Positions 28,220 to 45,753 of a stretch of DNA of 64,000 bases are shown here, one piece after another. The notes below the pieces were generated by a model. It saw nothing but the letters and a program-made list of their open reading frames with translations, had not been told where the DNA came from and searched no databases. Source of the DNA: Nitrospirota bacterium (GTDB taxonomy: Bacteria; Nitrospirota; Nitrospiria; JACQBZ01); NCBI GenBank assembly GCA_016194285.1, contig JACQBZ010000096.1:8974-72973 (forward strand), written 5' to 3'. How positions within the stretch are numbered: the stretch's first letter is position 1; every line of letters starts with the position of its first letter. Position numbers and translations under genes: made by a program.

Positions 28220-28320
28220 CTCCGATCAACCCCATTAAAAAATCGTATTATATCGTATAGGCACCGACCTGTAAAGACAGGCGCCGACTCTTTAAATATT
28301 TCGAAAGCAACCAAAATACA

Positions 28321-28348
28321 AAAGGGGGTGACGCGTGTCACCCCCTTT
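28321..28348 (-). terminator. Rho-independent terminator ending the cytochrome operon
   Basis: A 12-bp perfect stem (AAAGGGGGTGAC/GTCACCCCCTTT) has a 4-nt loop. It is followed on the minus strand by a T-rich run (TTTTGTATTTT), 24 nt after the stop at 28372. Confidence 0.6.
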
Positions 28349-28371: not shown

Positions 28372-30090
28372 TTATTTGCGCTGCGGTTTGGCTGCGCTGG
28401 CCCTTCGGATGATCCAGCCCTCGATCCCAAAAACCACGATCACGGCGATAAAGGGATAGATATAGGCAGTCGTCGGAACCGGCGGCTCAAGGATCGTGTA
28501 GTACCAGGTTGAGATGGATGTTTTCAACCCATGGTCGCCGTTGTTTCCGTCCCAGACAAAAAATACGGTCGGGATGTATTTGCCTTTTTCAAACTGGACT
28601 CCGTTTTCCTTGTCATCCGTCGTCAAGGCCCTCGTCAGAATCACGCGCCACCGGCCGTCTTTATACTCGGAAAAAACAGCCTTGACGTTCTGGCTCGGAC
28701 GAGCTTCGAGTTTCAAATCGCCTCCCATGGCGCCGTGTCCGGTGTACTCCTTCACCGTCCCGTCGGCTTCCCATTTCCAGAGATCAACGGCGTTTTTCGC
28801 ATCCCCGAACACAAATCGCGGCTTTTCCGGAGGCGTCAAGGTTTGCCACTTGCCGGGGAACTCGATGGCCACGGCATCGTTAAACATCGGGTATTCCCTC
28901 AACGCAATCGGTTCTCCGCTTGGCGGGGTTTCCTTGAAACTGGCCTCCTGCGCCAGGGTCTGGGGCGTGGCCACGCTTTTGATCCGATCGTCCCATTCCA
29001 GATACCAACCGATTTCCTTGTCATTAAAAATGGACTTTACCCAAACATCATCAACCAAGCGCACAAAATTCCGCGGCTTGTGGATGATCTGTCCGGCCAA
29101 TCCAATATATTGATTCGGAATTTTCTGCCAGATCGGATCATCCGGATTATTCGGAATGTTCCCTTGGATATTGTGGGCCCTGACCACCACCTGAATGGCG
29201 GGATGAATCGTCTGGGGATCGATCTTTTGCTTCGTGCAGAGTGAGATCACAAAATTCGCAACATCCCAACGCTGCTCCGGGGTCAGGGTTTCGGCAAACG
29301 AAGGCATCGGCGTGCCGTTCAGCCCGGTCGAAACTTCTCGGAAAACATTCCGAGGATTATAAGCATCTTCACGGTTCCCGCGGAAGTTCCAGCACTTGTG
29401 CAGATCGGCCGGAAAGATCGGGAAACCCCATTCGTCCTTCTGGGTTTTGTTTCCGTCGCCGCGTCCCTCATCGCCGTGACATTCCACGCACTTTCCCTTA
29501 TTCATAAAGACATCTTTTCCTCTTTTGATGCTTTCATCCGAGGTGGAGACTTGCTTGCCGTAGTCAATGACATGATACTCTTCATTTTCGGTGTCCTGAA
29601 AGTTCCGGTCTTTTACAAGATCGGCCATGACGAACGCGACCACTTGGTGCCGCTGTTGATCGGTCAGGATCCCATCCCACGGCGGCATCGCGGAGCCCGG
29701 CAATCCATGGGTCACGGTCAAAAAGAGATCATTCTCGGTCGGAAGCTCCCCGCTTCCGGTATGCCGAATCTTAAACGTCCCCGCGTTAAAATTCCGGGGC
29801 CTCGGCCAGAGGCGATCGGCCGAGGGTCCGTCCCCCGCGCCCTCGGGGCCGTGGCACCAAACGCATTTCCTAAAATAGATCTGCTTTCCGGCATCGATGT
29901 CGGCCGGAGAAGGCTTGGCCGGTCGGCCGGCGTTTGCAACCGCAGCCGGTTTTTCCTCTTTTTTGGTTTCGGCCATGGTCAGGACCACGCTTCCGGCTGC
30001 AACGACTGCTACCGTGACAACCCCCATCACGACCGCTTTCTTATAGCTCAAAAGAGATAAAATCCTGTTCATCGCTCGTGCCCCTTTCAC
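28372..30090 (-). CDS. Membrane-anchored dihaem cytochrome c fused to an EB_dh/DOMON-like (haem-b type) C-terminal domain
   Basis: The 572-aa ORF has an N-terminal TM helix and two CxxCH motifs (CVWCH, CVECH) in CcoP-like repeats. The C-terminal ~300 aa resemble the ethylbenzene-dehydrogenase gamma-type domain (IHKPRNFVRL...AVAIEFP...DLWKWEADG). Confidence 0.8.
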   Translation of the reverse strand: MKGARAMNRILSLLSYKKAVVMGVVTVAVVAAGSVVLTMAETKKEEKPAAVANAGRPAKPSPADIDAGKQIYFRKCVWCHGPEGAGDGPSADRLWPRPRNFNAGTFKIRHTGSGELPTENDLFLTVTHGLPGSAMPPWDGILTDQQRHQVVAFVMADLVKDRNFQDTENEEYHVIDYGKQVSTSDESIKRGKDVFMNKGKCVECHGDEGRGDGNKTQKDEWGFPIFPADLHKCWNFRGNREDAYNPRNVFREVSTGLNGTPMPSFAETLTPEQRWDVANFVISLCTKQKIDPQTIHPAIQVVVRAHNIQGNIPNNPDDPIWQKIPNQYIGLAGQIIHKPRNFVRLVDDVWVKSIFNDKEIGWYLEWDDRIKSVATPQTLAQEASFKETPPSGEPIALREYPMFNDAVAIEFPGKWQTLTPPEKPRFVFGDAKNAVDLWKWEADGTVKEYTGHGAMGGDLKLEARPSQNVKAVFSEYKDGRWRVILTRALTTDDKENGVQFEKGKYIPTVFFVWDGNNGDHGLKTSISTWYYTILEPPVPTTAYIYPFIAVIVVFGIEGWIIRRASAAKPQRK

Positions 30091-30114
30091 GTCAACGGAT
30101 GATTAATCCTAGGT

Positions 30115-31029
30115 CTAATCCCATGTTCTGGGGAAGAACTCCGTATGCCAATATTCAAACATGTTCACTTTCCAGATCTCGTCCGTGGTCAGATGCTCTT
30201 CCCATGGCGGCATCGCGGAGGCCCATGGAGCGCTCTCGCGCGGCAATCCCGGTCCTCCCTTGGAGATCCTCCAGAACACAAACGTTTCCTGAAGCTGGGC
30301 GATCGTCCCGGGATCGGCAAAGTTTGCCGGGATTGGAACAAAGGCAAACGCAAACATCCCGCGGCCGTTCAAGTTATCGCCGTGGCAAAAGTGGCAATTC
30401 TGGAAGAAAATGGCTCCGCCGTCTCTCACATTTTTCATATATTGCGGCGCATTCGGGTCAAAAGGATTCATCTTAAAATACTTGGATTCCTGTCCTACCG
30501 GCAGATATTTACCATTATCGTCCACTCTAAAAGGATTTTGAGCAGTCTGCAATGTAAAGTTTGTTCCGCGCACCGTGACGGAGGCGGGCGGAGCCGGATG
30601 AACCGTCCTTAAATCGATCGGCTCGTCAAATTTGGGGAGGTAGAAATCATACGTCCCGTACCCGATGAGCAGCGGAAGAACCACAAAGCTCACCGTTCGG
30701 ATCCCTTTATACATCGGGTTGACCGCCATGACCGTGTTTAAGATGGGTCGTTTAAACTCGGTCCATCCCTTCTCGGTAGAAGAAATAAACAGGAAGACGA
30801 CCAAGGTCACCAACCCCATAAAGGTATAGAGAAGCGCAGACGGTATGGGCGGAAACAACACAAACTTGAAGATCGAGTACGCTCCGAGCCAAAGAAGGAT
30901 GGCCTGCGGAAAAGCCGGTATCCGTTTGCCCATCTTCGTCAGAAGATAGTTCACGCCGACGTAGATGAACGCCACCAAGGTGATAATTAGAAGCAATTCA
31001 ATTGGCATGTAACCCGGAATCCACATCAT
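30115..31029 (-). CDS. Polytopic membrane protein with C-terminal monohaem cytochrome c domain
   Basis: The 304-aa ORF has about 4 hydrophobic helices followed by CHFCH. Confidence 0.8.
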   Translation of the reverse strand: MMWIPGYMPIELLLIITLVAFIYVGVNYLLTKMGKRIPAFPQAILLWLGAYSIFKFVLFPPIPSALLYTFMGLVTLVVFLFISSTEKGWTEFKRPILNTVMAVNPMYKGIRTVSFVVLPLLIGYGTYDFYLPKFDEPIDLRTVHPAPPASVTVRGTNFTLQTAQNPFRVDDNGKYLPVGQESKYFKMNPFDPNAPQYMKNVRDGGAIFFQNCHFCHGDNLNGRGMFAFAFVPIPANFADPGTIAQLQETFVFWRISKGGPGLPRESAPWASAMPPWEEHLTTDEIWKVNMFEYWHTEFFPRTWD

Positions 31030-31101
31030 TCACCTCCGAAATGATCGAATTATTCGAATCCTAGTGGTGTTCACTTAACTTGATGGATCTATGCGTCTAA
31101 G

Positions 31102-32325
31102 TTATTTAGAAGCCGCCTTTCCTCCACCCCCGCCGCACACCGTAGCGAACGATTCCTGCGGGGGCCCGTTCAAACCGTCCTTCTTGGCTTGATCACAATC
31201 CTGAGCCAACAAGTAATCGGCCATCTTTTCCAACGCTCCATAAGTAAACTTCTGGGCAAAGTCCTGGATCATCGGTGAAACCGTTGGATTAGCCTTTTGA
31301 ACAAACTGCGGAACAATAAACGCATTCGGATTGACGATGGATTCCATTACGTATTCCTTTGGTGTTTTTGCATGGGCCTTCCCGGCCTTGACCTGAGCCT
31401 GGTATTCCGGAGAGGCAATACGTCGCGCGGCATTATGCCCCTCGATCAGAAGCGGCCCGATCACGCCGAACTTCGCGGTGGCGATCCCCGGGATTTGATG
31501 ACAAGCAAAACAGCCCATTTTTGTGGCGATCTGATCCGGAGTATCGGAAGCCACTACAATGGGTGGCCCCGCCGGTGCGGCAACTTGCGTCGCTGCAGGG
31601 GCGCCCCCTTTTGGCCGATCGGACTCGGGGATAAACTTCTCATACGCGGCGCGAATTTCTTTGGCTGACGGCGGGGTCTCTCCTTCTCTAAAAAATAGCC
31701 AGGTATCCACCGCAATCAGTTGCTCGATGGTTAAACTGATCGGGGGTTTGTGAACGGCCGGCATCGGACTGTCCTTATCATTAGTGCCCTTTGTACCGAA
31801 GCCCGATACGACATAACAGGCCGGGCAGACATGAGACTCGGCAATATATTCTTCAGCCGTTGTTGCGCGTCCGCTCCCCTTAAAGGATTCAACCTGAACT
31901 GTGTCCGGTTTGAGGTATTTGGGATCCTTGATCCTTTCAGCAGCTCTCTTGGCGATCCCGATTAGATTCGGGGCACGGTCTCCGATATCGCCCGCTTTAA
32001 ATGTATGGCAGAGCGGACATTGCCCTGGCCCGATGCCTCGCTCGGCAAATCCGCCGACCTTTCCAAAGATGACCGCTTCCCCCATCTCGGCCAGTTTATC
32101 GACGGGCATGGTGTCCACCGCACCTGCCTCCATCTTCGGCGGAGGCGGAGGAACTTCACCACGGGTCTGCGGAAGCCAGTTCGAATAACTGGCAAAGATC
32201 CCCGTCATGACCATGTAGAAACCGATCGCCATTAAGATCCCTCGAATCCTCGGCAGATTATAGGCCAAAATGAAGAGAACGATCGAGGACAGCAGAATGG
32301 TGACAGCTAAGAGCCCTTGAGTCAC
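31102..32325 (-). CDS. Membrane-anchored dihaem cytochrome c
   Basis: The 407-aa ORF has two N-terminal TM helices and two CxxCH motifs (CPLCH, CFACH). Confidence 0.8.
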   Translation of the reverse strand: MTQGLLAVTILLSSIVLFILAYNLPRIRGILMAIGFYMVMTGIFASYSNWLPQTRGEVPPPPPKMEAGAVDTMPVDKLAEMGEAVIFGKVGGFAERGIGPGQCPLCHTFKAGDIGDRAPNLIGIAKRAAERIKDPKYLKPDTVQVESFKGSGRATTAEEYIAESHVCPACYVVSGFGTKGTNDKDSPMPAVHKPPISLTIEQLIAVDTWLFFREGETPPSAKEIRAAYEKFIPESDRPKGGAPAATQVAAPAGPPIVVASDTPDQIATKMGCFACHQIPGIATAKFGVIGPLLIEGHNAARRIASPEYQAQVKAGKAHAKTPKEYVMESIVNPNAFIVPQFVQKANPTVSPMIQDFAQKFTYGALEKMADYLLAQDCDQAKKDGLNGPPQESFATVCGGGGGKAASK

Positions 32326-32398
32326 GTTAGATCTCCTGTGGGTAAGATTTGGGGGCCGGCTGGAACCGGCCCCCAGAGATTAGTAATGAGGTTGACGA

Positions 32399-34321
32399 TT
32401 ACTCCGAGCCGCCGGCCATGGCGGGCCGAGCGACCTCTTTCCTCGCCTCGGCGAGTGCATGTTGCGAGGTCAGTTCGCCCAACCAAAATACAAACAATAC
32501 AAACAACCAGAAAGCCATCACATTGATCGACATCACGTTGGCCGCGAACCCAATCGTGTGGGTAAAGGCCCACGGGGAATTATCCCGAAACACCTCCATC
32601 ACGTGCCAGAACAACCGCACCGAGGATCGGATATATCCCATCAAGGCCATTAACCATGTAAAGGAGACCGCCAGGGCAAAAAGGGCATACTGCGAGCGCA
32701 CCGAGATTTTGCCCCACTCAATCGGCCCGGTCAACTTGGACCCTTTCATCATGGCGATGTTAATCGCGCTCCCGATAAACAACGTGGTTAAAGTTCCAAC
32801 GACCTGAGGCACGGACAGTCCGACACGCACATTGGCGGGGATGAAATATCCATAAATCGCCAGCCACCAGTTATTGACCAGGGCCACCGCAAACATCGCC
32901 ATTAAGGCGCCGTTGCCCCATGCCTCCCATTTCACCGTTACGATTTTATTACTGCGCTGATACAAGAGGAAAGAAATGATCGTGGTCATGATCATGGTGT
33001 TCACGGCGCCGTTCTTGGCCGACATCACACCAAAGTTTCCGATCACGGGATGTTGTTGCCCTCCGATGGCCTTCAACTCGGCGGGCCGCATCACCAAGGT
33101 ATGCGGCGTCAACCAAACCAGAAAGGCGGCCGTCGTAAGGAATAGGATGTACTTAATATATTTCTGGTATCGCTCCGCACCCCTCATCCGTTCCATTCCG
33201 TTGAACAGATAATAGTTGGTCGAGAAGAAGAGCGCGCCGATCAGCACCGCCTGTATGATAAACAACCAGGCCAGCAAACCGCCCATCAGCGTGATGCCCA
33301 TCTGCTGGCGGAAACCGTACACTTCACGCATCAGCCAGTAACCGGCAAAAGGCAATGGAATGAGCGACCCGACCGCCAAGAACATCGCAATGTATCCCAT
33401 CCAATCGTAGTAGGCCTTCTCTTCCTGATTCTTGGCCGCAAGGAATTTATACGCTGCGTAGGCCGCAACGATTCCGCCGCCGAACACCATGTTTCCGATG
33501 ATCCGGTGAACATTCAGGGGATTCCATAAGGCATTGTGCATAACCGCCCAGAGATTCCCCAAATATCGACCCTTCTCATCCACGCCGGCCGGGGACATCA
33601 TGAAACTCGCCCATGAATTGGCCAACATCATCAGAACCGTTCCAAACACGTTCAAGAGCACACCCATGCTGGCATGGATCCATTTTGCAAAACCATGGGC
33701 CATGCGGTCCCACCCATAATAATAGAGATAAAGGGTTCCGCTTTCGGCCAAGAAGAGAAGGGCGTAGATATGCATCACGGGCTTGAAAAGGGAGGAGAGA
33801 TACTTAAAGAAATCAGGATAGAGTGTAATAAAACTAAAGATAAGCAATCCGCCGAGGATTGCGGTAACGGAGTAAGCGGTGAGGCTGATCTTGACCATGA
33901 GATGGGCCAGATCATCATATTTCTTGGCCATCACAGGATCCTTCACCAACAGGCCGACCAGTTCGATGATCATGCAGAAGATCGGAACAGCCAGAACAAA
34001 GCTCCCGAAATAAAGATGCTGCTGGGCGATCGACCAGATGATAATTCGGTTTTCGCTGAGAGGATACGGGAGGTTATAACTTGGATAATCGGTGGCTTTT
34101 AATTCGGGAACAGGCGGGCCGGAGACGGGACCTTCTTTCTTATAGTAAATATCCTTGGCCATCTCGACCTTGGGCGCAGTCTCGGTTACGGCCTTGGTCG
34201 CATCGTCAGCCATTACAGGGGTTGAGAGAAGCGGCATAACGAGAGACATCAATAACATCGTCGCCACGGCCCCGAACGAGATCAGGGACCAGACCCGTAT
34301 TCTTCTGCTCATTGCCTTCAT
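32399..34321 (-). CDS. Cytochrome bd-like (CydA-homologous) polytopic membrane protein, putative terminal-oxidase subunit
   Basis: The 640-aa ORF has many TM helices and CydA-like blocks (IAQQHLYFGSFVLAVPIF; NSWASFMMSPAG; WNPLNVHRIIGNMVFGG). No cydB-like gene is adjacent. Three cytochrome c genes follow it. Confidence 0.8.
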   Translation of the reverse strand: MKAMSRRIRVWSLISFGAVATMLLMSLVMPLLSTPVMADDATKAVTETAPKVEMAKDIYYKKEGPVSGPPVPELKATDYPSYNLPYPLSENRIIIWSIAQQHLYFGSFVLAVPIFCMIIELVGLLVKDPVMAKKYDDLAHLMVKISLTAYSVTAILGGLLIFSFITLYPDFFKYLSSLFKPVMHIYALLFLAESGTLYLYYYGWDRMAHGFAKWIHASMGVLLNVFGTVLMMLANSWASFMMSPAGVDEKGRYLGNLWAVMHNALWNPLNVHRIIGNMVFGGGIVAAYAAYKFLAAKNQEEKAYYDWMGYIAMFLAVGSLIPLPFAGYWLMREVYGFRQQMGITLMGGLLAWLFIIQAVLIGALFFSTNYYLFNGMERMRGAERYQKYIKYILFLTTAAFLVWLTPHTLVMRPAELKAIGGQQHPVIGNFGVMSAKNGAVNTMIMTTIISFLLYQRSNKIVTVKWEAWGNGALMAMFAVALVNNWWLAIYGYFIPANVRVGLSVPQVVGTLTTLFIGSAINIAMMKGSKLTGPIEWGKISVRSQYALFALAVSFTWLMALMGYIRSSVRLFWHVMEVFRDNSPWAFTHTIGFAANVMSINVMAFWLFVLFVFWLGELTSQHALAEARKEVARPAMAGGSE

Positions 34322-34545: not shown

Positions 34546-34662
34546 TTAGTGGAATAGGAAAAAGTAATCAAGCCCTTGAATTTTCATGAAAAACCAGTCC
34601 ATTGTCTGAAAATATACAACCCATACCACAAGCATGACGAGAAAAGCGACCACCGTCTTCAT
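34546..34662 (-). CDS. Unannotated 38-aa hydrophobic mini-protein
   Basis: Own translation: MKTVVAFLVMLVVWVVYFQTMDWFFMKIQGLDYFFLFH*. The SD AAAGGTGG lies 5 nt upstream. The ORF is below the ORF-track size cutoff. Confidence 0.3.
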   Translation of the reverse strand: MKTVVAFLVMLVVWVVYFQTMDWFFMKIQGLDYFFLFH

Positions 34663-34707: not shown

Positions 34708-34809
34708 TCAATTATGGTATACCGCTGCAAGCCAATAGAAGAACCAGATCGAAACAAGACAGACGATGATATATAAAATTGGTCCTGCGTTTTGACGAAT
34801 TTTATCCAT
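34708..34809 (-). CDS. Unannotated 33-aa single-TM mini-protein
   Basis: Own translation: MDKIRQNAGPILYIIVCLVSIWFFYWLAAVYHN*. A strong SD (AAGGAGAGAGAA) lies directly upstream. Confidence 0.35.
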   Translation of the reverse strand: MDKIRQNAGPILYIIVCLVSIWFFYWLAAVYHN

Positions 34810-34937
34810 TTCTCTCTCCTTGAGGTGCGCCCCGAGTTCAATAACGCCCGCGATCTTAGTGAATTAAAAAAAGTTTGTCAAGAAAAAAATCCAAATGAAA
34901 CACCGTTTAAACAAAAGCCGAACCGGTCCCCCATTCA

Positions 34938-35858
34938 CTATGGCTGGGAGCCCGTCTTCGCACACCGGAACCCGATCGTTACATCGCGATATTCAGGATA
35001 CATCTTAAAACGGATCGAGGTCTGTGCACGCTTGATCGAATCGTTCCAGGAAGCTCCGCGAATGACCCGACTCTCCCCCTCCGAGACTCCGACGGGATTG
35101 CTCGCGGGCAACATGCGATAGGAATCCTGGTTATACCAATCCGCAACCCACTCCATCGCATTGCCCGCTAAATCATAAACCCCGTACGGGCTGACGTCCC
35201 GCTTAAATTGATTCACCGGAGCTGTATATGGCACGCCGTCGTCACCCACTAAATTGGCAAATTCGGACCGTTCCTCGTTGCCCCAAGGCCATTTTCGTTG
35301 GTCCGTTCCTTTGGAAGCTTTCTCCCATTCCGCCTCGGTTGGAAGGCGTTTGCCTTTCCATTGGCAATACTCCACCGCGTCATCCCAGGACACTCCGACG
35401 ACCGGGTTCAAGGCCTTGATGAAGAGCGGTATATCTTCTGTCGCGCCCGCCGAAAGATAGCCGGCCAGTCGAGGTTTCCGGTGCCCGGTAAGTCCGATGA
35501 ATTGGTAAAACTGCGCAAAGGTGACCTCGTACTTATCGATAGAATACCCGTCCAGATAGACCTTCCTTACGGGCTTCGCGTCATTGGAACCATCGTGGCT
35601 TCCCATGAAAAATTCGCCGGCGGGGATGAAGACCATCGATTCGAAATCCTCATCGATTTTGGCCTGTCTTACCTCGAGTTCGGCTTTCTGAGATTCTTCG
35701 GACACCTTCGCCAATTTTGTCGCCAGCGGTGTGTATCCCTGATCGGTTCGCGGCTCCTCCAAATCGGGTGGTCCTGATTTCTGACGGATTCCGATCTGAA
35801 TAATGACCAGGATCAAGAAAACAACCGCCAAGTAGATACCGATCAAGTACTTACTCAT
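34938..35858 (-). CDS. Membrane-anchored FGE/SUMF1-family (formylglycine-generating-enzyme-like) protein, paralogue 1
   Basis: The 306-aa ORF has an N-terminal TM helix and FGE-sulfatase domain motifs (VGVSWDDAVEYCQWKGKRLPTEAEWEKA, YDLAGNAMEWVADWY, RVIRGASW). It lacks the C-terminal CxxxxC copper-site pair of true FGEs. Confidence 0.88.
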   Translation of the reverse strand: MSKYLIGIYLAVVFLILVIIQIGIRQKSGPPDLEEPRTDQGYTPLATKLAKVSEESQKAELEVRQAKIDEDFESMVFIPAGEFFMGSHDGSNDAKPVRKVYLDGYSIDKYEVTFAQFYQFIGLTGHRKPRLAGYLSAGATEDIPLFIKALNPVVGVSWDDAVEYCQWKGKRLPTEAEWEKASKGTDQRKWPWGNEERSEFANLVGDDGVPYTAPVNQFKRDVSPYGVYDLAGNAMEWVADWYNQDSYRMLPASNPVGVSEGESRVIRGASWNDSIKRAQTSIRFKMYPEYRDVTIGFRCAKTGSQP

Positions 35859-37197: not shown

Positions 37198-38133
37198 TCA
37201 GGGAGTCGTTTTGGTGGAGCTGGATTTCATGGCATCCCCTGGTGTGACATCTTTCGCACAACGGAATCCAATCACCGCGCTGGTTTGGTGTTGAGCCGCC
37301 ATAAATCGCTTGGCCACCCTCGCATTAACCGAGGAATCATTCCAGGAGCCGCCCCGATAGACCCGGAATTTTCCCGTTTCGGGTCCTTTGGGGACCTTGA
37401 AAGGAGCGTTTTTGTAATAGTCCGCATCATACCAATCGGCCACCCACTCCGCGGCATTACCCGCCATATCGTATAGCCCATAGGGACTTCGTCCTGGTTC
37501 AAATCGCCCCGGGGGGGCTAGAAATTTATAACCGTCTTCTTCTCCCGTCAGATTGGCCGCCTTTTCGATAAAATCATTTCCCCACGGCCATCGGAAGCTT
37601 TGATCTCCACCCGCCGCCTTTTCCCACTCGGCTTCGGTGGGCAATCGCTTCCCGGCCCATTGACAATAATCTTTTGCGGCACTCCACGATACACCCACCA
37701 CGGGCAGTTCGGGTTTGGTGATGAGGGATAACTCCTCCTGAAAGACAGGAACTACCGGCATGGGATATTGGGTGGCCACCGAGAATTTCGAGAACTGGGC
37801 CTGGGTTACCTCCTTCAAATCGATCGAAAAAGCCGGCAGGAAAACCGCATGCTGCGGCATTTCATCCAAATCCCCGTTCGCAGCCGGACTGCCCATTTGA
37901 AAAGGTCCGTCCGGGATTACGACCATTTCTGAACCATCTTCCGTCATGATCGTGTTGAAACGGCTGAAATCGCGCAGGCCGGTTTGTCGTTCTTGTGTCT
38001 GCTCGACTTGCGTGCTTCGAGGCTTGGATGCTAACCGACTTGTTTTCCAAGCATCATAGATGAAGAAACCGATCAACAGAAAAAAAGAAGCGAAGACGAT
38101 GAGTGTTCCGTAATAAAACGCATCCTTTTTCAT
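37198..38133 (-). CDS. Membrane-anchored FGE/SUMF1-family protein, paralogue 2
   Basis: The 311-aa ORF has an N-terminal TM helix and the same FGE-domain motifs (VGVSWSAAKDYCQWAGKRLPTEAEWEKA, YDMAGNAAEWVADWY, RVYRGGSW). Confidence 0.88.
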   Translation of the reverse strand: MKKDAFYYGTLIVFASFFLLIGFFIYDAWKTSRLASKPRSTQVEQTQERQTGLRDFSRFNTIMTEDGSEMVVIPDGPFQMGSPAANGDLDEMPQHAVFLPAFSIDLKEVTQAQFSKFSVATQYPMPVVPVFQEELSLITKPELPVVGVSWSAAKDYCQWAGKRLPTEAEWEKAAGGDQSFRWPWGNDFIEKAANLTGEEDGYKFLAPPGRFEPGRSPYGLYDMAGNAAEWVADWYDADYYKNAPFKVPKGPETGKFRVYRGGSWNDSSVNARVAKRFMAAQHQTSAVIGFRCAKDVTPGDAMKSSSTKTTP

Positions 38134-38309: not shown

Positions 38310-38991
38310 GTGAAACCGATGCGCTCCTGGGATCGGCGAAAGTTCCTCCAAATCTCCGGCCTAAGCACCCTGCTTAGCCTGGGCGCTAACAGGGCTCAGG
38401 GTGCGATCTATTTTCTTAAAACGTTCCTATCGCTCCCTCCCCGGAATACCCCGCCCGTCACACCGAATTCCCAATTCTACGTTTACGACCTGGGCCGCAT
38501 GTCGAAACGGCTACCCTCTGCGCGCCGTTGTGCCGGGAATTTATGGAATGAAGAATGTGAAATGGATTATGGAAATCGAAGTAACCGATGCGGATTATCT
38601 GGGATATTGGCAACAGCGGGGGTGGTCGGATGAAGCTCTCATTGGAATCATGTCCCGGATCGACAGTCCCGGCGCCTATCAGGAGCTGAGCGGTTTGAAG
38701 CAGGTCATCCGAGGCATCGCCTTCGCCGGCTCGTCCGGAATCCAGAAGGTCGAGGTCAGCACCGACGGTGGGCGACGTTGGAACCTCGCGCAACTTAATC
38801 CGCCCCTCTCCGCTTACACATGGGTATTCTGGCGGTTTGACTGGCAAGTCCCTCAGCCGGGGATCTATCGCATCGTTGTCCGCGCCGCCGATCGATCGGG
38901 CCGCCTTCAGACCGCTGAGTACAGTCGAGGATTTCCAGACGGGACGACCGGCTTCCATGCGATCACCGTGGAGGTGGTCCAGCGATCTTAA
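38310..38991 (+). pseudogene. Sulfite-oxidase-family molybdoenzyme gene with internal deletion and frameshift
   Basis: Frame 1 gives a Tat signal (RRKFLQISGLSTLL) and TPNSQFYVYD. Frame 2 continues with NGYPLRAVVPGIYGMKNVKWIMEIEV and a Mo-co dimerisation-like domain. About 150-180 aa of the catalytic core expected between these blocks are absent. Confidence 0.7.
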
Positions 38992-39002
38992 GTCTTTCCC
39001 TG

Positions 39003-39055
39003 GAAATAACGTGGTGTCCCCAAGGGGATTCGAACCCCTGTTACCGCCGTGAAAG
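39003..39055. repeat. Island attachment-site repeat (left): copy of the tRNA-Glu 3' end plus 9 nt
   Basis: This 53-nt sequence is identical to 45657-45709, checked base by base. Confidence 0.9.
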
Positions 39056-39185
39056 TTCTTAAGTGGCATTTTTCACAGGGTCTTGATTTTGGGCTGGTTT
39101 CCCCGTTTTTCTTCTGAAATCAACGCATTGCTTGTGGTCTACTGATTCTATTAGGTCCATCCATTATTGGGATTTTTGAAGAGTT

Positions 39186-39204
39186 TTAGCACAATTTTAG
39201 CACA
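39186..39204. repeat. Tandem TTAGCACA motifs (11-bp register) near the left island end; a third copy lies at 39246-39253
   Basis: The sequence reads TTAGCACAATTTTAGCACA. The same doublet with the same 11-bp spacing occurs at 45597-45615. Confidence 0.6.
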
Positions 39205-39335
39205 GTGCTGTGGTGGGGTGAACCCCTCGGTTGAGACAATCTGGATTAGCACACTTGCGGTTTAATGGATTGTCCTGCTCATCGGATCGCTACATTTCCT
39301 TCATGTCTAAAAAATAGTCAGGCCCTTTATACCGA

Positions 39336-39659
39336 TTATCGAACTATCGCTCTTAAGACCTTTACTGCAATCTTTAACTTGTCAGGTGTAGCTTCCTTCA
39401 TCAAATCATTCAGAACTTCCTTCAGTTCCTTCGGATTTTCAGCTTCGTGAGCGAATTCAAAAAAGTCTTTCAATTCCACATGTAACGCACCGGCCAGTTT
39501 TGCCAGGGTATCCAAAGAAGGAAAACTCCCTCCAACTTCTATTCTGCTTAAGTGTTTCGCGTCTATTCCGACCTTTTCAGAGAGTTTTTCCTGCGATACC
39601 CCCTTTGTCTTCCGAATCTCTTTAACCCTTGCCCCAAGTTGTTCTTTTATCGTTCTCAT
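39336..39659 (-). CDS. XRE-family helix-turn-helix regulator
   Basis: The 107-aa ORF has the HTH_3 pattern GARVKEIRKTKGVSQEKLSEKVGIDAKHLSRIEVG. Confidence 0.85.
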   Translation of the reverse strand: MRTIKEQLGARVKEIRKTKGVSQEKLSEKVGIDAKHLSRIEVGGSFPSLDTLAKLAGALHVELKDFFEFAHEAENPKELKEVLNDLMKEATPDKLKIAVKVLRAIVR

Positions 39660-39959
39660 AAGCCCCCCCCAGGATGGCTTATGTTCATCCTTGAGAGCCG
39701 TTTATGGAACAGCATGAGATGTAGAGTTTATTGACAAAGTACGTATTTGAGGTAGACTTATCTACATTGAGAACAGGTATTATAGTAATTTATCAGCATT
39801 ACAGAGGGTGTTAAGTAATGGCATATTCCACATCTGAAGAAATGTGAATGCGCCCTAAAGCGGCTTGCAGTTATCCAACTGGGGGGAGCGATCCTGATCT
39901 GGACCAGTTTATGACCACAAGAAATGGCTATCAACTGCAAACAAAAGGAGGAAGACAAC

Positions 39960-40337
39960 ATGAAGAAGGTGATCGCGGTGTTGTTGCTTGTTGTGAATTG
40001 CATGGGCTGTGGCACTTTGTTTAATGGGACGACAAAGAATGTTGGCATTTCGTCAAGTCCCTCAGGGGCGCAAGTAATCGTGGATGGCCGTTCCTATATC
40101 ACCCCGGCTCAGGTGGGACTTAAACGAAACCAGACCTACGCCATTACGGTTCAAAAGGAAGGATATGAACCCGCTGGAGCAACGGTACAGCGGTCCGTTT
40201 CTGGATGGATTTGGGCCGATGTGGTCTCCATGCTCGCGGGTGGAGCTGGACTGCTGGGCTTGATTGTCGATTTTGTGGATGGCGGTGCTTATGATTTGGA
40301 ACCGGATAACGTTAACGTGAATCTTCAGAAAAAATAG
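39960..40337 (+). CDS. PEGA-domain lipoprotein
   Basis: The start MKKVIAVLLLVVNCMGCG (lipobox) follows the SD AAGGAGG. A PEGA-like segment (AQVIVDGRSYITPAQVGL...ITVQKEGYEP) follows. The ORF track begins at 39924. Confidence 0.75.
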   Translation: MKKVIAVLLLVVNCMGCGTLFNGTTKNVGISSSPSGAQVIVDGRSYITPAQVGLKRNQTYAITVQKEGYEPAGATVQRSVSGWIWADVVSMLAGGAGLLGLIVDFVDGGAYDLEPDNVNVNLQKK

Positions 40338-40415
40338 CGAGTGCGTTGCTTCTTTGCAAACCTATAGGTTTATTTTGATCAAAGCACTCAGACAACGAGC
40401 AACGAGGAGGGAACA

Positions 40416-40640
40416 ATGAATAGGTTGAAGAACGTTATAAGCATAGCCATTGTTGTGTTGATGTTCAGCATGGTGGGCTGTGCGGCTTCGATGGTACTGA
40501 TGAAGAACGACAAAGGGGAGATCGCCCGCTGCGAACCGAACACCGGATCGACAATCGCTTTCGGCTATATTGGCAGCAAGATGTCGGTCAATTCCTGTGT
40601 GGCCGAGTACGAAAAGCTGGGGTACAAGCGGGTGCAGTAG
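40416..40640 (+). CDS. Small lipoprotein, unknown function
   Basis: The 74-aa ORF has a signal peptide with the lipobox LMFSMVGC and is preceded by the SD GAGGAGGG. Confidence 0.6.
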   Translation: MNRLKNVISIAIVVLMFSMVGCAASMVLMKNDKGEIARCEPNTGSTIAFGYIGSKMSVNSCVAEYEKLGYKRVQ

Positions 40641-40723
40641 GCGAAGCCGGAAACCCACGTCGGCCAAGAGTACCCCTACCCCGCTGATTTGTTTCACCGC
40701 CCTGTTAAATTCGCAAAGGCCGG

Positions 40724-41653
40724 TTACAAGCCTTTTGTTTTTACCACAGTGTCAATTCGCTTGAATCTAAGCTCATCTATAAATTGTTGAACTTGGGCGT
40801 TTTGCAAAAAATCAGGGATCAACACTACAATTAGCTCTGAACCGTAACGGCTGGCATACTGGTCCATTTGTCCCAAGGCGCGCTGAAGTTCACTGTTGCT
40901 CTTGGGCATCTTGAACTCCACACCGACACCACCCTGTTGAGGATGTCCGATATGGAAGTCGATCTTCAACGTTGTGCCGTGCGCAACAGGAAGCTGCTCA
41001 TGTACATTATCTGGATCAAAAATCTCTAACATTTCGTCCATAAAGTCTTGATAACAATCCTTCTCATACTCATAGTTCTTTAGAATAGGGTACCATTTAA
41101 CAAACGGAATAACGGTTTGCTTGGTTATTGGTATCGCATCCGAGAGAGTGGGCAACCAGCCTTCACGATACCCGATCTCACGATAAATTCTCCTGACGAG
41201 AATATTTTTCGGTCCCTCGCTGTCTATATCGAGCTCTTGACAAATCTCAGATAAGGTTGCCGCATTGTAAGGGTTGAGATAAAAGATGGTCTGTTCTGGA
41301 AAGTCCTCAGGAGACATGGAAAGGTATTTCGTGTGTTGCTTTATACGGACCATCTTCTCTTCTACGGTACCAACTGGATCTTGACCTATTTTTCGTAACC
41401 AATCTGACAGCTCTTGAGAAGTTGAAAAATCGAGATAGCATTGAAGAAGTTTTTCTCTGAATTGCATGTCTACAGTGGGCTTGGCTTCATCTACAGAGGA
41501 CGTAGAGGAAATGCCAGACGGCACAGACGTGGTATCGTTGGTCAGCGGAGCGGCTTTATTGTCCGGTTCTGAAGTAGAAGGAACCTGCTTGCCACAGGAT
41601 GGACAGAACCGAGCCTTATTAGGAACGTTCGACCCACATGAAACACAGAACAT
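40724..41653 (-). CDS. Zinc-ribbon / tandem SAP-like / PD-(D/E)xK-like protein, unknown function
   Basis: The start MFCVSCGSNVPNKARFCPSCG follows the SD GGGGAGGA. There are two SAP-like helices (ELSDWLRKIGQDPVGTVEEKMVRI; TLSEICQELDIDSEGPKNILVRRI). The C-terminus reads LKIDFHIG...GVGVEFKMP...Q, a D...ExK pattern. Confidence 0.75.
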   Translation of the reverse strand: MFCVSCGSNVPNKARFCPSCGKQVPSTSEPDNKAAPLTNDTTSVPSGISSTSSVDEAKPTVDMQFREKLLQCYLDFSTSQELSDWLRKIGQDPVGTVEEKMVRIKQHTKYLSMSPEDFPEQTIFYLNPYNAATLSEICQELDIDSEGPKNILVRRIYREIGYREGWLPTLSDAIPITKQTVIPFVKWYPILKNYEYEKDCYQDFMDEMLEIFDPDNVHEQLPVAHGTTLKIDFHIGHPQQGGVGVEFKMPKSNSELQRALGQMDQYASRYGSELIVVLIPDFLQNAQVQQFIDELRFKRIDTVVKTKGL

Positions 41654-41773
41654 AGCTTTTATCCTCCCCAATGGTGATATTCCGACTACTAACTTCTTTA
41701 GTGCTTCTATTTTGGACCCTCCAACTTTAGCGCTTTTACAGGCTGCCTATGAAAGAGTGAGGCGTTTTATCTT

Positions 41774-42418
41774 CTAAGAGCATTGCCCTGAGGTAGTCGG
41801 ATAAGAACCGCTTGAGGTCTCAATATCCATACGATATAGATCTAACGCCGAATCAAGAAATACGTCTTCATTCCATATCTCAAACTTCTTTTTATTATAT
41901 CGCCAACCGATGTTTACGTTGTCGTGGCTCCATTTGTCCCCGCCCCCGAAATCATTTAGGATGTCGGCGATGAGCGACCAACATGGTTTACGCGTTAAGC
42001 GCTTAAAGTACGCCTGTAAAATCCAAACAAAAGTCCACTGCGTTGCGGGAGGCTTTGTCCTGACTTTCTGTACGCGTTTATCCAGACGTGGTATGGAGAT
42101 AAACTTGCCAGTATCATCCATAATCTGTTCGGTATAGTATTCCATTTTTCCCAGTTGCTTTAGTCCCCGAAGATAAAGTTGCTTCCAGATATCTTTCCAT
42201 CTTTTTCCTTCTTTTTTCATGAGATGACGCTTCATCTTCTTATAATTTGCTTCCTTTCGATTCTTAGCTTCCTTCCCATGACCGGTAACAAACGGTAGGG
42301 TTAGGGGGTTTAGCATGTGCTGATCCTCGGCCAACCAACGGACAAAATCCACGTTTCCACCGATTTCGTTTAATTTTTGCTTCCAGTCCAGGCTGGACCT
42401 CATCCGCTTCCTTCCCAT
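41774..42418 (-). CDS. Hypothetical basic protein, no recognisable domain
   Basis: The 214-aa ORF is Lys/Arg-rich and AT-rich. An alternative start lies at 42403, after a GGAAGGA SD. Confidence 0.6.
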   Translation of the reverse strand: MGRKRMRSSLDWKQKLNEIGGNVDFVRWLAEDQHMLNPLTLPFVTGHGKEAKNRKEANYKKMKRHLMKKEGKRWKDIWKQLYLRGLKQLGKMEYYTEQIMDDTGKFISIPRLDKRVQKVRTKPPATQWTFVWILQAYFKRLTRKPCWSLIADILNDFGGGDKWSHDNVNIGWRYNKKKFEIWNEDVFLDSALDLYRMDIETSSGSYPTTSGQCS

Positions 42419-42472
42419 CTCGTGTCCAAAAAAAGGGGTGGTATTGTAATATCTCTCTTTTATTAGAAATAG

Positions 42473-42504
42473 TATACTCCGATATTATAAAAAATATACT
42501 CCGA
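42473..42504. promoter_or_regulatory. Direct repeats TATACTCCGA x2 (22-bp register) in a divergent promoter region
   Basis: Identical 10-mers lie at 42473-42482 and 42495-42504. They sit between the minus-strand gene start (42418) and the plus-strand mini-ORF (42507). Confidence 0.4.
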
Positions 42505-42506
42505 GC

Positions 42507-42620
42507 ATGGACAAGGAACAAGAGAAAAAGCGAGGTTTGCTGATAATCCGGGAGGCCGCAAAGGTGTTTGAAAAGAGCCGTGTTATCGAAACCAAGAAGG
42601 GAGGTGAAACCTATGCCTAA
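42507..42620 (+). CDS. Candidate 37-aa mini-ORF
   Basis: Own translation: MDKEQEKKRGLLIIREAAKVFEKSRVIETKKGGETYA*. Its stop overlaps the next ATG (ATGCCTAA). Confidence 0.25.
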   Translation: MDKEQEKKRGLLIIREAAKVFEKSRVIETKKGGETYA

Positions 42621-42744
42621 GAAACGAGAGCTTGAAGAGCGTGTCGCAGAGCTGGAAGAAAAATTGGAGGAAGCCCGTGACCTCATTGTTGAGGCTCTTG
42701 GTCTTGAAGATGAAGACGACGCTGAGTTCGAAGGAGACGGATGA
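42613..42744 (+). CDS. Candidate 43-aa acidic coiled-coil mini-protein
   Basis: Own translation: MPKKRELEERVAELEEKLEEARDLIVEALGLEDEDDAEFEGDG*. A strong SD (GGGAGGTGA) lies upstream. Confidence 0.35.
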   Translation: MPKKRELEERVAELEEKLEEARDLIVEALGLEDEDDAEFEGDG

Positions 42745-42870
42745 CGGTGAGTAGTCCGTTAATAGGGGGAGAATAAGGGGCGGTGTTATCTATCTCGGAT
42801 ACCATCCGCCCCCTTTCCCAAAAACAGGATAATTGATATACACCAATGTGATGACAGGTGAAAGATGACA

Positions 42871-43161
42871 CTACCCTACCAGAAAAGGCACACGACGGGT
42901 CCGGGGTTTCTTTTTGCCGTTCTTGGAGCGAGACGGCGGATTGTGAGCGAAGGCAGGGCGTTCGCGAGAGAGTCTTCGCATCTCCCATCGGGTACCATCC
43001 GGTGCTATGTAGATCTGAACCAGCTTGACCCCTTTCATCAAGGGAGCCAGTGGGACCATCTCCCGGTCATCAAAATACTCGATCGTGTCGTGGGTATCCC
43101 AGAACTCTCGCTCCTCCGACCGGGATTTGAACTTTGGGATCGGTTTCGTCCTACTCTTCAT
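42871..43161 (-). CDS. BrnA/CopG-antitoxin-like protein (N-terminal motif only; possibly degraded)
   Basis: The N-terminus KPIPKFKSRSEEREFWDTHDTIEYFD matches the BrnA-type antitoxin signature. The rest is atypical. No BrnT-like toxin is seen nearby. Confidence 0.45.
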   Translation of the reverse strand: MKSRTKPIPKFKSRSEEREFWDTHDTIEYFDDREMVPLAPLMKGVKLVQIYIAPDGTRWEMRRLSRERPAFAHNPPSRSKNGKKKPRTRRVPFLVG

Positions 43162-43227
43162 GCTTATCTGGTTCTCTCAGCAACATACAAGTTTTTGTAG
43201 ATTATGAAGGCGGATAGAAAAATGCTG

Positions 43228-43413
43228 TTACCGTTTACGCAGAGCTTGTGCCGCAAGAAGACCGATACCCATCATAAATATCAAGGCAATATCTTTGTCA
43301 TAAATTCTCATCTCGAACGAGTCGCCAAAGTAGGAAACATCCAGAATGGGCTGCCTGTAAGTTCTCGGAGCGGCCTGATAAACCGCCGGATTATTATTGG
43401 AGTTAATATACAT
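43228..43413 (-). CDS. Hypothetical small protein with C-terminal hydrophobic helix
   Basis: The 61-aa ORF is preceded by the SD AAAGGAGA, 7 nt upstream. Confidence 0.4.
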   Translation of the reverse strand: MYINSNNNPAVYQAAPRTYRQPILDVSYFGDSFEMRIYDKDIALIFMMGIGLLAAQALRKR

Positions 43414-43519
43414 TTGTTTTCTCCTTTGTTAGTTAATGTTCCGCAGGAGTTTGGCTTTCTCCATAATTGTTATATCATACCATGAAAGTTGAACATTTTC
43501 AAGGCAAGAGGGAGCAACT

Positions 43520-44209
43520 ATGCCCTGGATGACGATAAGAGAAGCGGCGGAAACCTTGAAGGTTAGCCGAAGAACAATCCGCCGAATGATTAAAGCGGGT
43601 ACTCTGACTTCCCGGTTAGAGAATGGAATGCGCCTTGTCCTGTTGCGTAGGGGTAAGGAGATTGCCCCGGTGGAGCAGGAAACAGGTCGGAATCAAGGAC
43701 TACTGTCCATCTTGTTTGAGACTTACGAATCCTTCCGGGCACTCAAGGCGCGGTGTCTTAGTCGGTTAGCTTTAGAAAAAACTGCGGGCGGCTTATTTAC
43801 AGAACTTTCCGATCAGGAAAGAAGGCCCGCATTTGAGGGCTGGGTCCCCCTTTATCAGAAAATTCAAGCCCTCTATAAATCCCTGGATGGAATGGTTAGC
43901 AAAATGACCCTCACCAGGGATGTCCTTCAAGGGGTCTATCGAGGGACGCTGGATGTCCGGGAGACGTGGGGCCGGTATGACCTAAGGGACAGCGAATATG
44001 ATATTGCAGCCAATCAAGAAGTAAGCGATGAAAATACCCAGGCCATTATGGACAGCATCCTGAACGGCCTAAAAAAGTTACTCATCGGGTGCGTCAACCC
44101 CAGTGATGCACCTGACACGGGGTGTGACATTGAGTATGACACTGAGCGTGACATGTCCTATGACACGCCCTCGGAGCGCCTCTATGATACGGACAATAAT
44201 GATGAGTGA
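43520..44209 (+). CDS. Helix-turn-helix (excisionase/MerR-type) DNA-binding protein
   Basis: The N-terminus reads MTIREAAETLKVSRRTIRRMIKAGTL and the SD AGAGGGAG lies upstream. The remaining ~170 aa match nothing I recognise. Confidence 0.7.
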   Translation: MPWMTIREAAETLKVSRRTIRRMIKAGTLTSRLENGMRLVLLRRGKEIAPVEQETGRNQGLLSILFETYESFRALKARCLSRLALEKTAGGLFTELSDQERRPAFEGWVPLYQKIQALYKSLDGMVSKMTLTRDVLQGVYRGTLDVRETWGRYDLRDSEYDIAANQEVSDENTQAIMDSILNGLKKLLIGCVNPSDAPDTGCDIEYDTERDMSYDTPSERLYDTDNNDE

Positions 44210-45658: not shown

Positions 45659-45709
45659 AATAACGTGGTGTCCCCAAGGGGATTCGAACCCCTGTTACCG
45701 CCGTGAAAG
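45657..45709. repeat. Island attachment-site repeat (right), overlapping the functional tRNA-Glu 3' end
   Basis: This 53-nt sequence is identical to 39003-39055. Confidence 0.9.
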
Positions 45710-45743
45710 GGCGATGTCCTAGGCCGGGCTAGACGATGGGGAC
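45666..45743 (-). tRNA. tRNA-Glu (anticodon UUC), CCA encoded
   Basis: The reverse complement reads GTCCCCATCGTCTAGCCCGGCCTAGGACATCGCCCTTTCACGGCGGTAACAGGGGTTCGAATCCCCTTGGGGACACCA. It is close to E. coli tRNA-Glu and has the anticodon loop CTTTCAC. Confidence 0.9.
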
Positions 45744-45753
45744 ACACGAGGAG

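Follow-up and report, generated by a model that had tools for sequence, protein, structure and literature searches.

Membrane proteins that resemble the CydA subunit of cytochrome bd oxidase, and that are encoded together with c-type cytochromes, have been described several times in Nitrospira-type bacteria. The cytochrome bd superfamily has been split into qOR, OR-C and OR-N (Murali, Gennis & Hemp 2021), and the supplement of that study describes OR-N2 operons as typically containing multiple cytochromes c and an ebdC homolog, with an unclear electron donor. Here we analyse such an operon in a stretch of 64,000 nucleotides (the window) from contig JACQBZ010000096.1 of a Nitrospirota bacterium (assembly GCA_016194285.1, class Nitrospiria, JACQBZ01). 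The operon comprises four open reading frames (ORFs), named A to D in their order of transcription, all on the minus strand and spanning positions 34321..28372. Our results identify it as a real and complete copy of a known, never purified bd-like complex of Nitrospira-type bacteria.

This type of operon is already known from a series of studies (Lucker 2010; Lucker 2013; Mundinger 2019; Yu & Leadbetter 2020; Yu 2022; Murali 2021). Lucker 2013 described a bd-like protein with 14 transmembrane (TM) helices and without a Q-loop, encoded with a monohaem cytochrome c, a dihaem cytochrome c and an alternative NxrC carrying two haem c sites. That cluster was conserved in Nitrospina, Kuenenia and Nitrospira, lay inside the nxr region in the first two, and was considered enigmatic, with a suggested role in reverse electron transport resembling that of alternative complex III (ACIII). 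In Nitrospira moscoviensis, the corresponding genes were named bd-like_3 and alt_NxrC_2 and belong to the 40 genes with the highest transcription; bd-like_2, the supposed terminal oxidase of the NIDE0901 type, is located elsewhere, with complex III genes, bd-like_1 and alt_nxrC_1 (Mundinger 2019). In Ca. Manganitrophus, the complex TO_1, which combines two cytochromes c and a periplasmic cytochrome b with a bd-like protein, reaches the 98th percentile of expression (Yu & Leadbetter 2020; Yu 2022). Papers of 2024 and 2025, PMC12342949 among them, still call the OR-N family uncharacterised. Our literature searches found no biochemical or structural characterisation of OR-N enzymes and the copy of the PDB of April 2026 holds no OR-N-type structure, which agrees with the initial annotation, a reading of the sequence alone, that had described these proteins as biochemically uncharacterised.

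Gene order and flanking genes lead us to assign the window operon as the syntenic ortholog of the cluster of bd-like_3, two cytochromes c and alt_NxrC_2 (TO_1), because both match those of Nitrospira sp. Kam-Ns4a, a cultured strain with a complete genome whose A homolog is 68% identical to that of the window. The order in the window is FGE, FGE, s1, s2, A, B, C, D, moeA, argS, tgt, yajC and secDF, where FGE stands for genes of formylglycine-generating enzyme fold and s1 and s2 are small ORFs discussed below; the closest metagenome-assembled genome (MAG), GCA_016201865.1, has the same order. Kam-Ns4a has a second bd-like gene, FGE, FGE, a 40-aa gene, a 70-aa gene, A, B, C, D, two genes, argS, tgt, yajC and secD. 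The two loci thus share the FGE-fold genes upstream and argS-tgt-yajC-secD downstream, and the likeness to bd-like_3/TO_1 extends to the signature residues of the bd-like protein, its approximately 14 TM helices, the lack of a Q-loop, and the content and order of the four genes. They differ in that the window lacks a nearby second bd-like copy (bd-like_4), and in that its clade probably does not oxidise nitrite; D also carries a Phe in place of the Met that binds haem b in EbdC and NXR-C. The initial annotation had linked the operon to NIDE0901. This holds at the level of the subfamily, since NIDE0901 is an OR-N2 subunit (PMC12342949), but not at the level of the locus, where gene content and synteny point to bd-like_3/alt_NxrC_2. 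NIDE0901/bd-like_2 resembles A in being CydA-like, of the OR-N2 type, devoid of a Q-loop, supposedly fed by cytochrome c and endowed with extra conserved histidines proposed as a Cu site; it differs by its locus, the distinction between paralogy and orthology being drawn from gene content and synteny only.

The four genes were recovered exactly as first annotated, co-directional and separated by 73 (A-B), 72 (B-C) and 24 nt (C-D). ORF A (32399..34321) encodes a CydA-like ('bd-like') polytopic haem b protein of 640 aa, for which both hydropathy and the AlphaFold2 model give ~14 TM helices. As had been noticed, the similarity to CydA is confined to its N-terminal half. The Pfam family Cyt_bd_oxida_I (PF01654) matches with E=3e-14 (52.8 bits for a cutoff of 26.2), covering only residues 99-335 and positions 10-238 of the 418 of the profile, and the translation contains the motifs AQQHLYFGSF, NSWASFMMSPAG and WNPLNVHRIIGN. 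Direct alignment with hhalign pairs residues 8-211 of E. coli CydA with residues 91-297 of A, and only these (probability 95%), and a profile search of the PDB retrieved exclusively canonical CydA chains over the same region; this required a profile, as phmmer with the sequence of A alone gave no match in the PDB. The AlphaFold2 model has moderate confidence (predicted local distance difference test score, pLDDT, of 64; predicted template modelling score, pTM, of 0.60), and in a Foldseek search with it CydA chains take the first ten ranks (probability 1.0), with CydB next. No haem-copper oxidase family of Pfam matches A. The absence of an adjacent CydB, also reported initially, extends to the whole window: neither the operon nor the 64 kb contain a CydB (PF02322-type) or a second bd-family ORF.

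The alignments show which functional residues of CydA were kept and which were replaced. His19 of CydA, the ligand of the active-site haem, corresponds to His102 of A, which is invariant in 33 of 33 aligned sequences and present in 25 of 27 divergent representatives; Glu107 of the proton channel corresponds to Glu193, and His186, the first ligand of the low-spin haem b558, to His272, all three pairs being given by hhalign and by the PDB profile search. The counterpart of Met393, the second b558 ligand, is Met433 according to the published OR-N2 table alone (M430 shifted by three), since our alignments end after TM5. Glu99 aligns to an invariant Tyr186 (hhalign), and the table places Ser566 at the position of Glu445. 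There is no Q-loop in A: homology to CydA ends at residue 211 of the latter and TM6 directly follows TM5. Because of this, A is predicted to be unable to draw electrons from quinol in the way CydA does; Lucker 2013 likewise concluded that the bd-like protein lacks a Q-loop. Compared with the canonical CydAB(X) complexes of E. coli (6RKO) and Geobacillus (5DOQ), A shares TM1-5 and the equivalents of His19, His186 and Glu107, and has CydA as its best fold match, but it lacks the Q-loop with its quinol site and a CydB partner, has Tyr for Glu99 and Ser for Glu445, carries about five more helices and is encoded with c-type cytochromes.

These features place A in a precise branch of the superfamily. 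The OR-N2 reference TKS59798.1, a protein with 14 TM helices, has the signature residues H269, M430/N434, S563, H99, Y183, E190, H213, W569, Y197 and Y199 (Murali 2021, Suppl. Table 6). Their equivalents in A are H272, M433/N437, S566, H102, Y186, E193, H216, W572, Y200 and Y202, at a constant offset of +3, and these positions are invariant or nearly so in our alignment of 33 sequences. Since all signature residues are present at this constant offset, we classify A, by its sequence, as an OR-N2 CydA homolog, and the multiple cytochromes c and EbdC homolog of the operon fit the published description of the group. Membership in OR-N1 was considered and rejected: those proteins have a Gly at the position of Glu107 and are encoded with pet genes (petA/petB/petD) (Murali 2021), but A has Glu193 and the window has no Rieske or cytochrome b genes. 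The key residues of A are kept down to 26-46% identity (27 representatives). The extra helices contain a further set of invariant polar residues, H407, E415, H424, K436, R565, R569, H573 and D580, of which the histidines H407, H424 and H573 lie on the P-side. The extra conserved histidines of bd-like proteins have reportedly been proposed (Lucker 2010) to form a Cu site like the CuB site of haem-copper oxidases, in which three His would bind Cu beside a high-spin haem.

The other three genes encode membrane-anchored c-type cytochromes with five His/Met c haems altogether, and their CxxCH motifs are where they had been placed. ORF B (31102..32325, GTG start) encodes a membrane-anchored dihaem cytochrome c of 407 aa with sites CPLCH103, paired with Met188, and CFACH272, paired with Met352. 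ORF C (30115..31029) encodes a polytopic monohaem cytochrome c (304 aa, ~4 TM helices) with CHFCH212 and Met273, and an invariant His144. ORF D (28372..30090) encodes a fusion of the alt_NxrC type between a dihaem cytochrome c and an EB_dh domain (572 aa), with sites CVWCH76 and CVECH201. All the c haems have a conserved distal Met, and the number of CxxCH motifs is stable among orthologs: two in 50 of 52 for B, one in 52 of 53 for C and two in 44 of 46 for D. C and D match the Pfam families Cytochrome_CBB3 and Cytochrom_C, and B also has c-type cytochrome domains; all domains assigned initially were recovered. A physical association between A and B is supported by natural fusions (P0121, P0122 and P0141; 784-889 aa), in which a bd-like protein is joined to an additional TM helix and to either one or two domains of cytochrome c. 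One fusion of A with cytochrome c comes from a hydrothermal-vent Nitrospinae bin.

Protein D consists of an N-terminal TM anchor, a dihaem module (residues 63-289), an EB_dh/NxrC-like domain (318-531) and a C-terminal TM helix. The dihaem module (residues 66-289) can be aligned over the full length of chain B of PDB 6H5L (E=2e-50), the dihaem partner of a Kuenenia protein resembling hydroxylamine oxidoreductase (HAO), including both CxxCH motifs and both regions of the distal Met. We take this chain to be Kustc0457, partner of the HAO-like Kustc0458. Unlike it, a soluble partner of an octahaem enzyme, the module of D is part of a membrane-anchored fusion encoded in a bd-like operon. The fusion with an EB_dh/NxrC-type domain that the initial annotation had proposed was recovered: PF09459 matches residues 318-524 (E=1.5e-13, 51.7 bits for a cutoff of 33.3), and this part aligns to the Kuenenia nitrite oxidoreductase (NXR) subunit NXR-C (7B04_C) and to EbdC (2IVF_C). 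Similarity to TIGR03477, the haem b subunit of type II dimethyl sulfoxide (DMSO) reductases, (E=1.6e-25, 89.6 bits) is below the model cutoff of 169.85, and D is therefore best read as a domain relative of this family, not an equivalog. Residues 318-531 share with EbdC and NXR-C the EB_dh fold and a G-D-x4-V-(D/N)-x-W-x-W motif; unlike these, D joins the domain to a dihaem cytochrome c and two TM anchors, and the window lacks alpha and beta genes.

The EB_dh domain departs from its models at the very position that binds haem b. EbdC and NXR-C bind this haem through a Met and a Lys, which in NXR-C are Met155 and Lys305. Met155 (prMgd) and the Met of EbdC align to Phe428 of D (codon at ~28807-28809), and among 43 orthologs this column holds F in 15 (including the clade of the window), H in 12, M in 8 and Y in 4. 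The His variant is found in Manganitrophaceae, Troglogloeales and basal Nitrospinota, the Met variant in Nitrospina. The Lys ligand aligns one residue away from K523, in a column of 25 K, 9 H and 3 R. Five residues before position 428 there is an invariant and family-specific Lys423, within an E-K-P motif. As judged from these alignments, the canonical Met/Lys haem b site is missing from the EB_dh domain of D; Phe428 argues against canonical haem b binding and flags a haem-b ligand that would not be conserved across the family. Decay of the domain following the loss of the Met was rejected, because it is 82-86% identical to its closest relatives, which indicates that it is under constraint.

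Our results suggest that the transcription unit is larger than the four genes first reported. The 616-nt stretch between the FGE-fold gene and A contains two conserved small ORFs on the minus strand, and the unit therefore probably extends past the coordinates first given, to six genes (s1-s2-A-B-C-D); the claim of a complete and compact example stands for the four genes. ORF s1 (34708..34809) encodes a 33-aa protein (MDKIRQNAGPILYIIVCLVSIWFFYWLAAVYHN) and s2 (34546..34662) one of 38 aa (MKTVVAFLVMLVVWVVYFQTMDWFFMKIQGLDYFFLFH), both hydrophobic and with a single TM helix. The former is kept in 18 loci with an intact frame, on the strand of A and 150-450 nt upstream of it, and has the motif I/LWFFYWFG; the latter is kept in 22 loci, including Manganitrophaceae and Troglogloeales, also in an intact frame, with the motif YFQxxDWxxMxxQGLDYF. 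Substitutions are most frequent at third codon positions in both (2717/2473/3867 for the three positions of s1 and 4296/3285/5971 for those of s2). Both small genes are called in Nitrospira sp. Kam-Ns4a, where the 40-aa gene occupies the place of s1, and s2 is called on a Logan contig with an identical A protein; the NCBI annotation of GCA_016201865.1 calls neither, and in public MAGs they mostly go unannotated. Searches of Pfam and NCBIfam, CydX-type families included, gave no match for s1 or s2. We regard them as candidate small subunits of the complex, by comparison with CydX, CydS and CydH; the likeness to CydX and CydS concerns size, the single TM helix and the position in the operon only, the sequences being unrelated to CydX. 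The s1 orthologs of Nitrospirales end in a C-P-C motif that the s1 of the window lacks.

Signals of expression fit a tight operon. AGGAG precedes the GTG of B and GGAGGTG the ATG of C, as expected of Shine-Dalgarno sites. The start of D is more likely at ATG 30072 than at 30090, because this codon is Met7, kept in 93% of the orthologs, and is preceded by the Shine-Dalgarno-like AAAGGGG; the gap between C and D would then be 42 nt. The clean end of the operon that had been noticed is a strong intrinsic terminator (28321..28348) 24 nt past the stop codon of D, with a 12-bp GC-rich stem and a U-tract (-24.4 kcal/mol, z=-6.2), followed by UUUUGUAUUUU. Between A and B lies another GC-rich hairpin (32351..32374, minus strand; -25.3 kcal/mol, z=-5.4), this one without a U-tract. 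Hairpins of -20 kcal/mol or stronger occur, with unrelated sequences, in ~30 of 52 orthologous A-B spacers (loci L001-L078), in a count that covered these A-B spacers only; this suggests a conserved element that might serve transcript stabilisation, processing or partial termination. Neither this hairpin nor s1 and s2 are mentioned in the published descriptions of this type of cluster that we consulted. Upstream of s1, a promoter-like site (34853..34881, minus strand; TTGACA-17-TAAGAT) matches the sigma-70 consensus at 10 of 12 positions; such matches are not above the expectation from shuffled sequences, and this one is a consensus match only, whose position is weakly consistent with a six-gene transcript. 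Inspection by eye of the region upstream of A revealed no convincing sigma-54 promoter, and an Rfam scan of 27.5-39.5 kb gave no match.

The association of the four genes is not restricted to this genome. A search of ~5.8 billion proteins retrieved more than 7,800 relatives of A, whose closest named matches are all Nitrospirota; clustering at 50% gave 1,056 representatives, 260 of them with E<=1e-30, and look-ups gave almost no taxonomy for the divergent ones. Among the loci from named genomes, the order A-B-C-D is found in ~50 of 80, in four phyla, which bears out the co-conservation expected of an operon. Carriers include several orders of Nitrospiria, Nitrospirales, Manganitrophaceae, Troglogloeales and Nitrospinota, as well as Gemmatimonadota (often without B) and one Chloroflexota MAG. 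Given this recurrence and the conserved numbers of CxxCH motifs, the four-gene arrangement is more than chance.

In a neighbour-joining tree of A, the protein of the window groups with MAGs of groundwater Nitrospirae/Nitrospiria (JACQCA01, JACQFA01, Hainich H32). This clade is sister to one with RIFCSPHIGHO2_01_FULL_66_17, and both fall outside Nitrospirales. The non-Nitrospirales orders of Nitrospiria (2-01-FULL-66-17, JACQBW01, JACQBZ01, JACQCE01, JACRHA01 and SBBL01) are reported to encode no nitrite-oxidising proteins (PMC12342949). From its placement in the tree, the organism of the window thus probably does not oxidise nitrite. Seen with the macro-synteny shared with Nitrospira, this implies that the operon is ancestral in the class Nitrospiria and predates nitrite oxidation in it. 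In Nitrospira sensu stricto (L016-L029), there is also a nested clade of A paralogs (~67% identity) encoded directly upstream of nxrA/nxrB, such as positions 7815-15549 of L020 in Nitrospira sp. DJ, preceded by two sigma-54 activators and without B, C or D within 8 kb; cultured Nitrospira (Kam-Ns4a) also keep the syntenic copy linked to B, C and D. We rejected the idea that the operon is specific to NXR, since the copies adjacent to nxrAB form a single, nested and lineage-specific clade. The window itself contains no nxrAB or other molybdoenzyme alpha/beta genes, and the occurrence of the operon in a clade reported to lack NXR, in Mn-oxidising Manganitrophaceae, in Gemmatimonadota and in Chloroflexota argues in the same direction.

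What could such a complex do? The initial annotation called it a 'bd-like' oxidase operon and cited the proposal of a novel terminal oxidase for such proteins (NIDE0901 of Nitrospira defluvii, Lucker 2010). An oxidase function survives as the favoured hypothesis, but no longer as the only one, since the literature assigns this cluster rival roles in anchoring NXR or in reverse electron flow. We regard a terminal oxygen reductase fed by cytochrome c as the most likely function and give it about an even chance. The sequences establish the gene content, the domains, the conserved residues, the synteny and the subfamily; from these we infer complex formation, the direction of electron flow, O2 as the acceptor and the roles of s1, s2 and the FGE-fold proteins. 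Protein A would be the catalytic membrane core, keeping the four-helix bundle of CydA and TM5. Electrons from periplasmic donors would travel by way of D, B and C, reach the His272/Met433 haem and be passed on to the His102 haem, where O2 would be reduced to water, possibly with the help of the invariant Tyr186 and of the invariant H407, H424 and H573 on the P-side; the Glu193 pathway would supply protons from the cytoplasm, generating a membrane potential. The retention in A of the haem ligands His102 and His272 and of Glu193, with loss of the quinol site, fits this hypothesis. So does the fact that aerobes in which haem-copper oxidases are missing or hardly expressed carry the operon and express it strongly (top 40 transcripts of N. 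moscoviensis, 98th percentile in Ca. Manganitrophus). The tight operon, the good Shine-Dalgarno sites, the conserved haem counts and distal Met, and the fusions of A with cytochrome c point to feeding by cytochrome c.

Several observations weigh against an oxygen reductase. No OR-N enzyme was ever purified or solved, and our structural model of A is of moderate confidence only (pLDDT 64). The canonical Glu99 and Glu445 of the oxygen site are replaced by Tyr186 and Ser566, and because these two are not conserved a third haem is unproven. The same cluster was reported in strictly anaerobic anammox bacteria (Lucker 2013; Mundinger 2019), which is a poor fit with an obligatory O2 reductase. In Nitrospira, the favoured oxidase is the paralog bd-like_2/NIDE0901, the bd-like_3 cluster having been assigned to NXR anchoring or reverse electron flow (Mundinger 2019), and the electron-transport proteins of N. 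marina are mostly unresponsive to low O2.

The report from anammox bacteria would be explained if the complex worked in reverse, as an ACIII-like oxidoreductase between periplasmic donors and quinone, a role proposed for exactly this cluster (Lucker 2013; Mundinger 2019) that we consider possible, though clearly not the likelier course. Electrons would enter via D, B and C and be driven uphill by the proton-motive force through the b haems of A to quinone, at a new site in the C-terminal helices replacing the Q-loop, providing reductant for CO2 fixation. The ~five extra TM helices of A, with their eight invariant polar residues (H407, E415, H424, K436, R565, R569, H573 and D580), could host this site, and the Glu193 pathway could serve quinone protonation. 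Yet A has no recognisable quinone-binding motif and lacks all the residues of the quinol site of CydA, and its invariant histidines and Met433 are on the periplasmic side, as for a haem site of the bd type. Five His/Met c haems, which from general knowledge of cytochromes c are typically of high potential, would make a poor wire to quinone, and the operon occurs in Gemmatimonadota and Chloroflexota, which are not known to need reverse flow from donors of very high potential. An oxygen reductase could also be taken further. In a bolder form, which we put forward tentatively and think rather unlikely, the complex would be a third independent solution to the reduction of O2 by cytochrome c, built on a bd scaffold, in which the His102 haem, Tyr186 and a Cu or extra haem at H407/H424/H573 would be convergent with the haem-CuB-Tyr site of haem-copper oxidases. 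It would have s1 and s2 as subunits, possibly FGE-fold maturation factors in Nitrospirota, and an age exceeding that of nitrite oxidation in Nitrospiria.

The NxrC/EbdC fold of D raises a different prospect, in which the complex docks a periplasmic enzyme of the type II DMSO-reductase family, an NXR-like alpha-beta pair, and the EB_dh domain replaces or binds the gamma subunit by the FS4 cluster of beta, passing electrons to the c haems and to A. The A paralogs directly upstream of nxrA/nxrB in Nitrospira sensu stricto, the location of the cluster inside the nxr region of Kuenenia and Nitrospina (Lucker 2013), and the presence of moeA, a gene of molybdenum cofactor synthesis, immediately downstream would all fit. 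We find this improbable: the window has no alpha or beta gene of a molybdoenzyme, the only nearby molybdoenzyme gene being a broken one of the sulfite-oxidase family; its clade belongs to orders reported to lack NXR; the axial Met of EbdC/NXR-C is Phe428 in a column that varies between F, H, M and Y; and the adjacency of moeA is limited to the closest relatives. Finally, canonical bd oxidases have protective roles, Nitrospirota use O2-sensitive enzymes of the reductive tricarboxylic acid (rTCA) cycle, and a Nitrospinota paper raises the question for OR-N, so that a periplasm-fed scavenger of O2, NO or H2O2 shielding such enzymes can be imagined. It seems to us very unlikely, as expression during lithotrophic growth is constitutive and very high, suggesting a core role in catabolism, and five c haems with an additional domain would be elaborate for a scavenger.

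The genes around the operon may be informative on its assembly. The two FGE-fold proteins encoded upstream (34938..35858 and 37198..38133, both on the minus strand) are membrane-anchored, resemble sulfatase-modifying factors and match Pfam FGE-sulfatase with E=1e-56 and E=5e-58, respectively; matches to PvdO, EgtB and GldK fall short of the threshold. Every Nitrospirota locus with B, C and D has one or two FGE-fold genes in the same orientation directly upstream, and the versions of the operon of Nitrospinota, Gemmatimonadota and Chloroflexota have none. They are possibly accessory or maturation factors of the complex. By eye, the Cys pair usual in FGE seems to be missing from their C-terminal RGASWND...GFRCA region. 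Past the terminator, moeA has its own promoter-like site (TTTACA-17-TATAAT at 28275..28247).

The remainder of the window includes the housekeeping genes infB, relA, recJ, secDF, tgt, argS and purA, and a few other features. The sulfite-oxidase-family gene (38310-38991, plus strand; Oxidored_molyb and Mo-co_dimer), with a twin-arginine translocation (TAT) signal, is broken: its N-terminal signal is read in another frame than the C-terminal 160 aa, and ~80 residues are lacking. A close relative (L083) has an intact gene (279 aa), and the window copy adjoins an island of low GC content (~39000-45660; 0.47-0.48, for flanks of 0.52-0.60) that also carries an HTH/MerR-like gene. The island contains a tyrosine integrase (44510-45658, plus strand) beside a tRNA-Glu (45666-45743, minus strand), with a tRNA-Lys at 45753-45826 (minus strand). 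GCA_016201865.1, collinear apart from this, lacks the island, which is probably an integrative element that entered at the tRNA. A 1513-aa protein with LamG, Big_2, HYR and PKD domains (6498-11039, minus strand; GC 0.51-0.55) is probably a surface adhesin. A NuoF-like gene (50579-51853, minus strand; Complex1_51K and NADH_4Fe-4S) stands outside any complex I operon of the window, near a PAS/sigma-54 activator (53084-54448); stand-alone NuoF genes have been discussed for Nitrospira (Mundinger 2019).

The identity of the terminal oxidase matters because most Nitrospira, which include the dominant nitrite oxidisers and the complete ammonia oxidisers, and many Nitrospina lack a canonical cytochrome c oxidase, and because the Mn-oxidising Ca. 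Manganitrophus barely expresses one. The OR-N bd-like complexes are the leading candidates for this role and may link the oxidation of periplasmic substrates to the membrane. For testing this, the window offers nothing beyond the genomes of cultured strains. What our analysis adds are the candidate small subunits s1 and s2, the hairpin between A and B, the FGE-fold genes next to the operon, the unusual residue at the haem-b ligand position and the occurrence of the operon at a syntenic locus in organisms that probably do not nitrify. The small subunit candidates, the non-conserved haem-b ligand of the EB_dh domain and the occurrence outside nitrifiers are relevant to the purification, heterologous expression and structure prediction of the complex. 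The presence of the alt_NxrC_2 cluster at the same locus in an organism that probably does not oxidise nitrite argues that it is a general respiratory module, and not an accessory of NXR.

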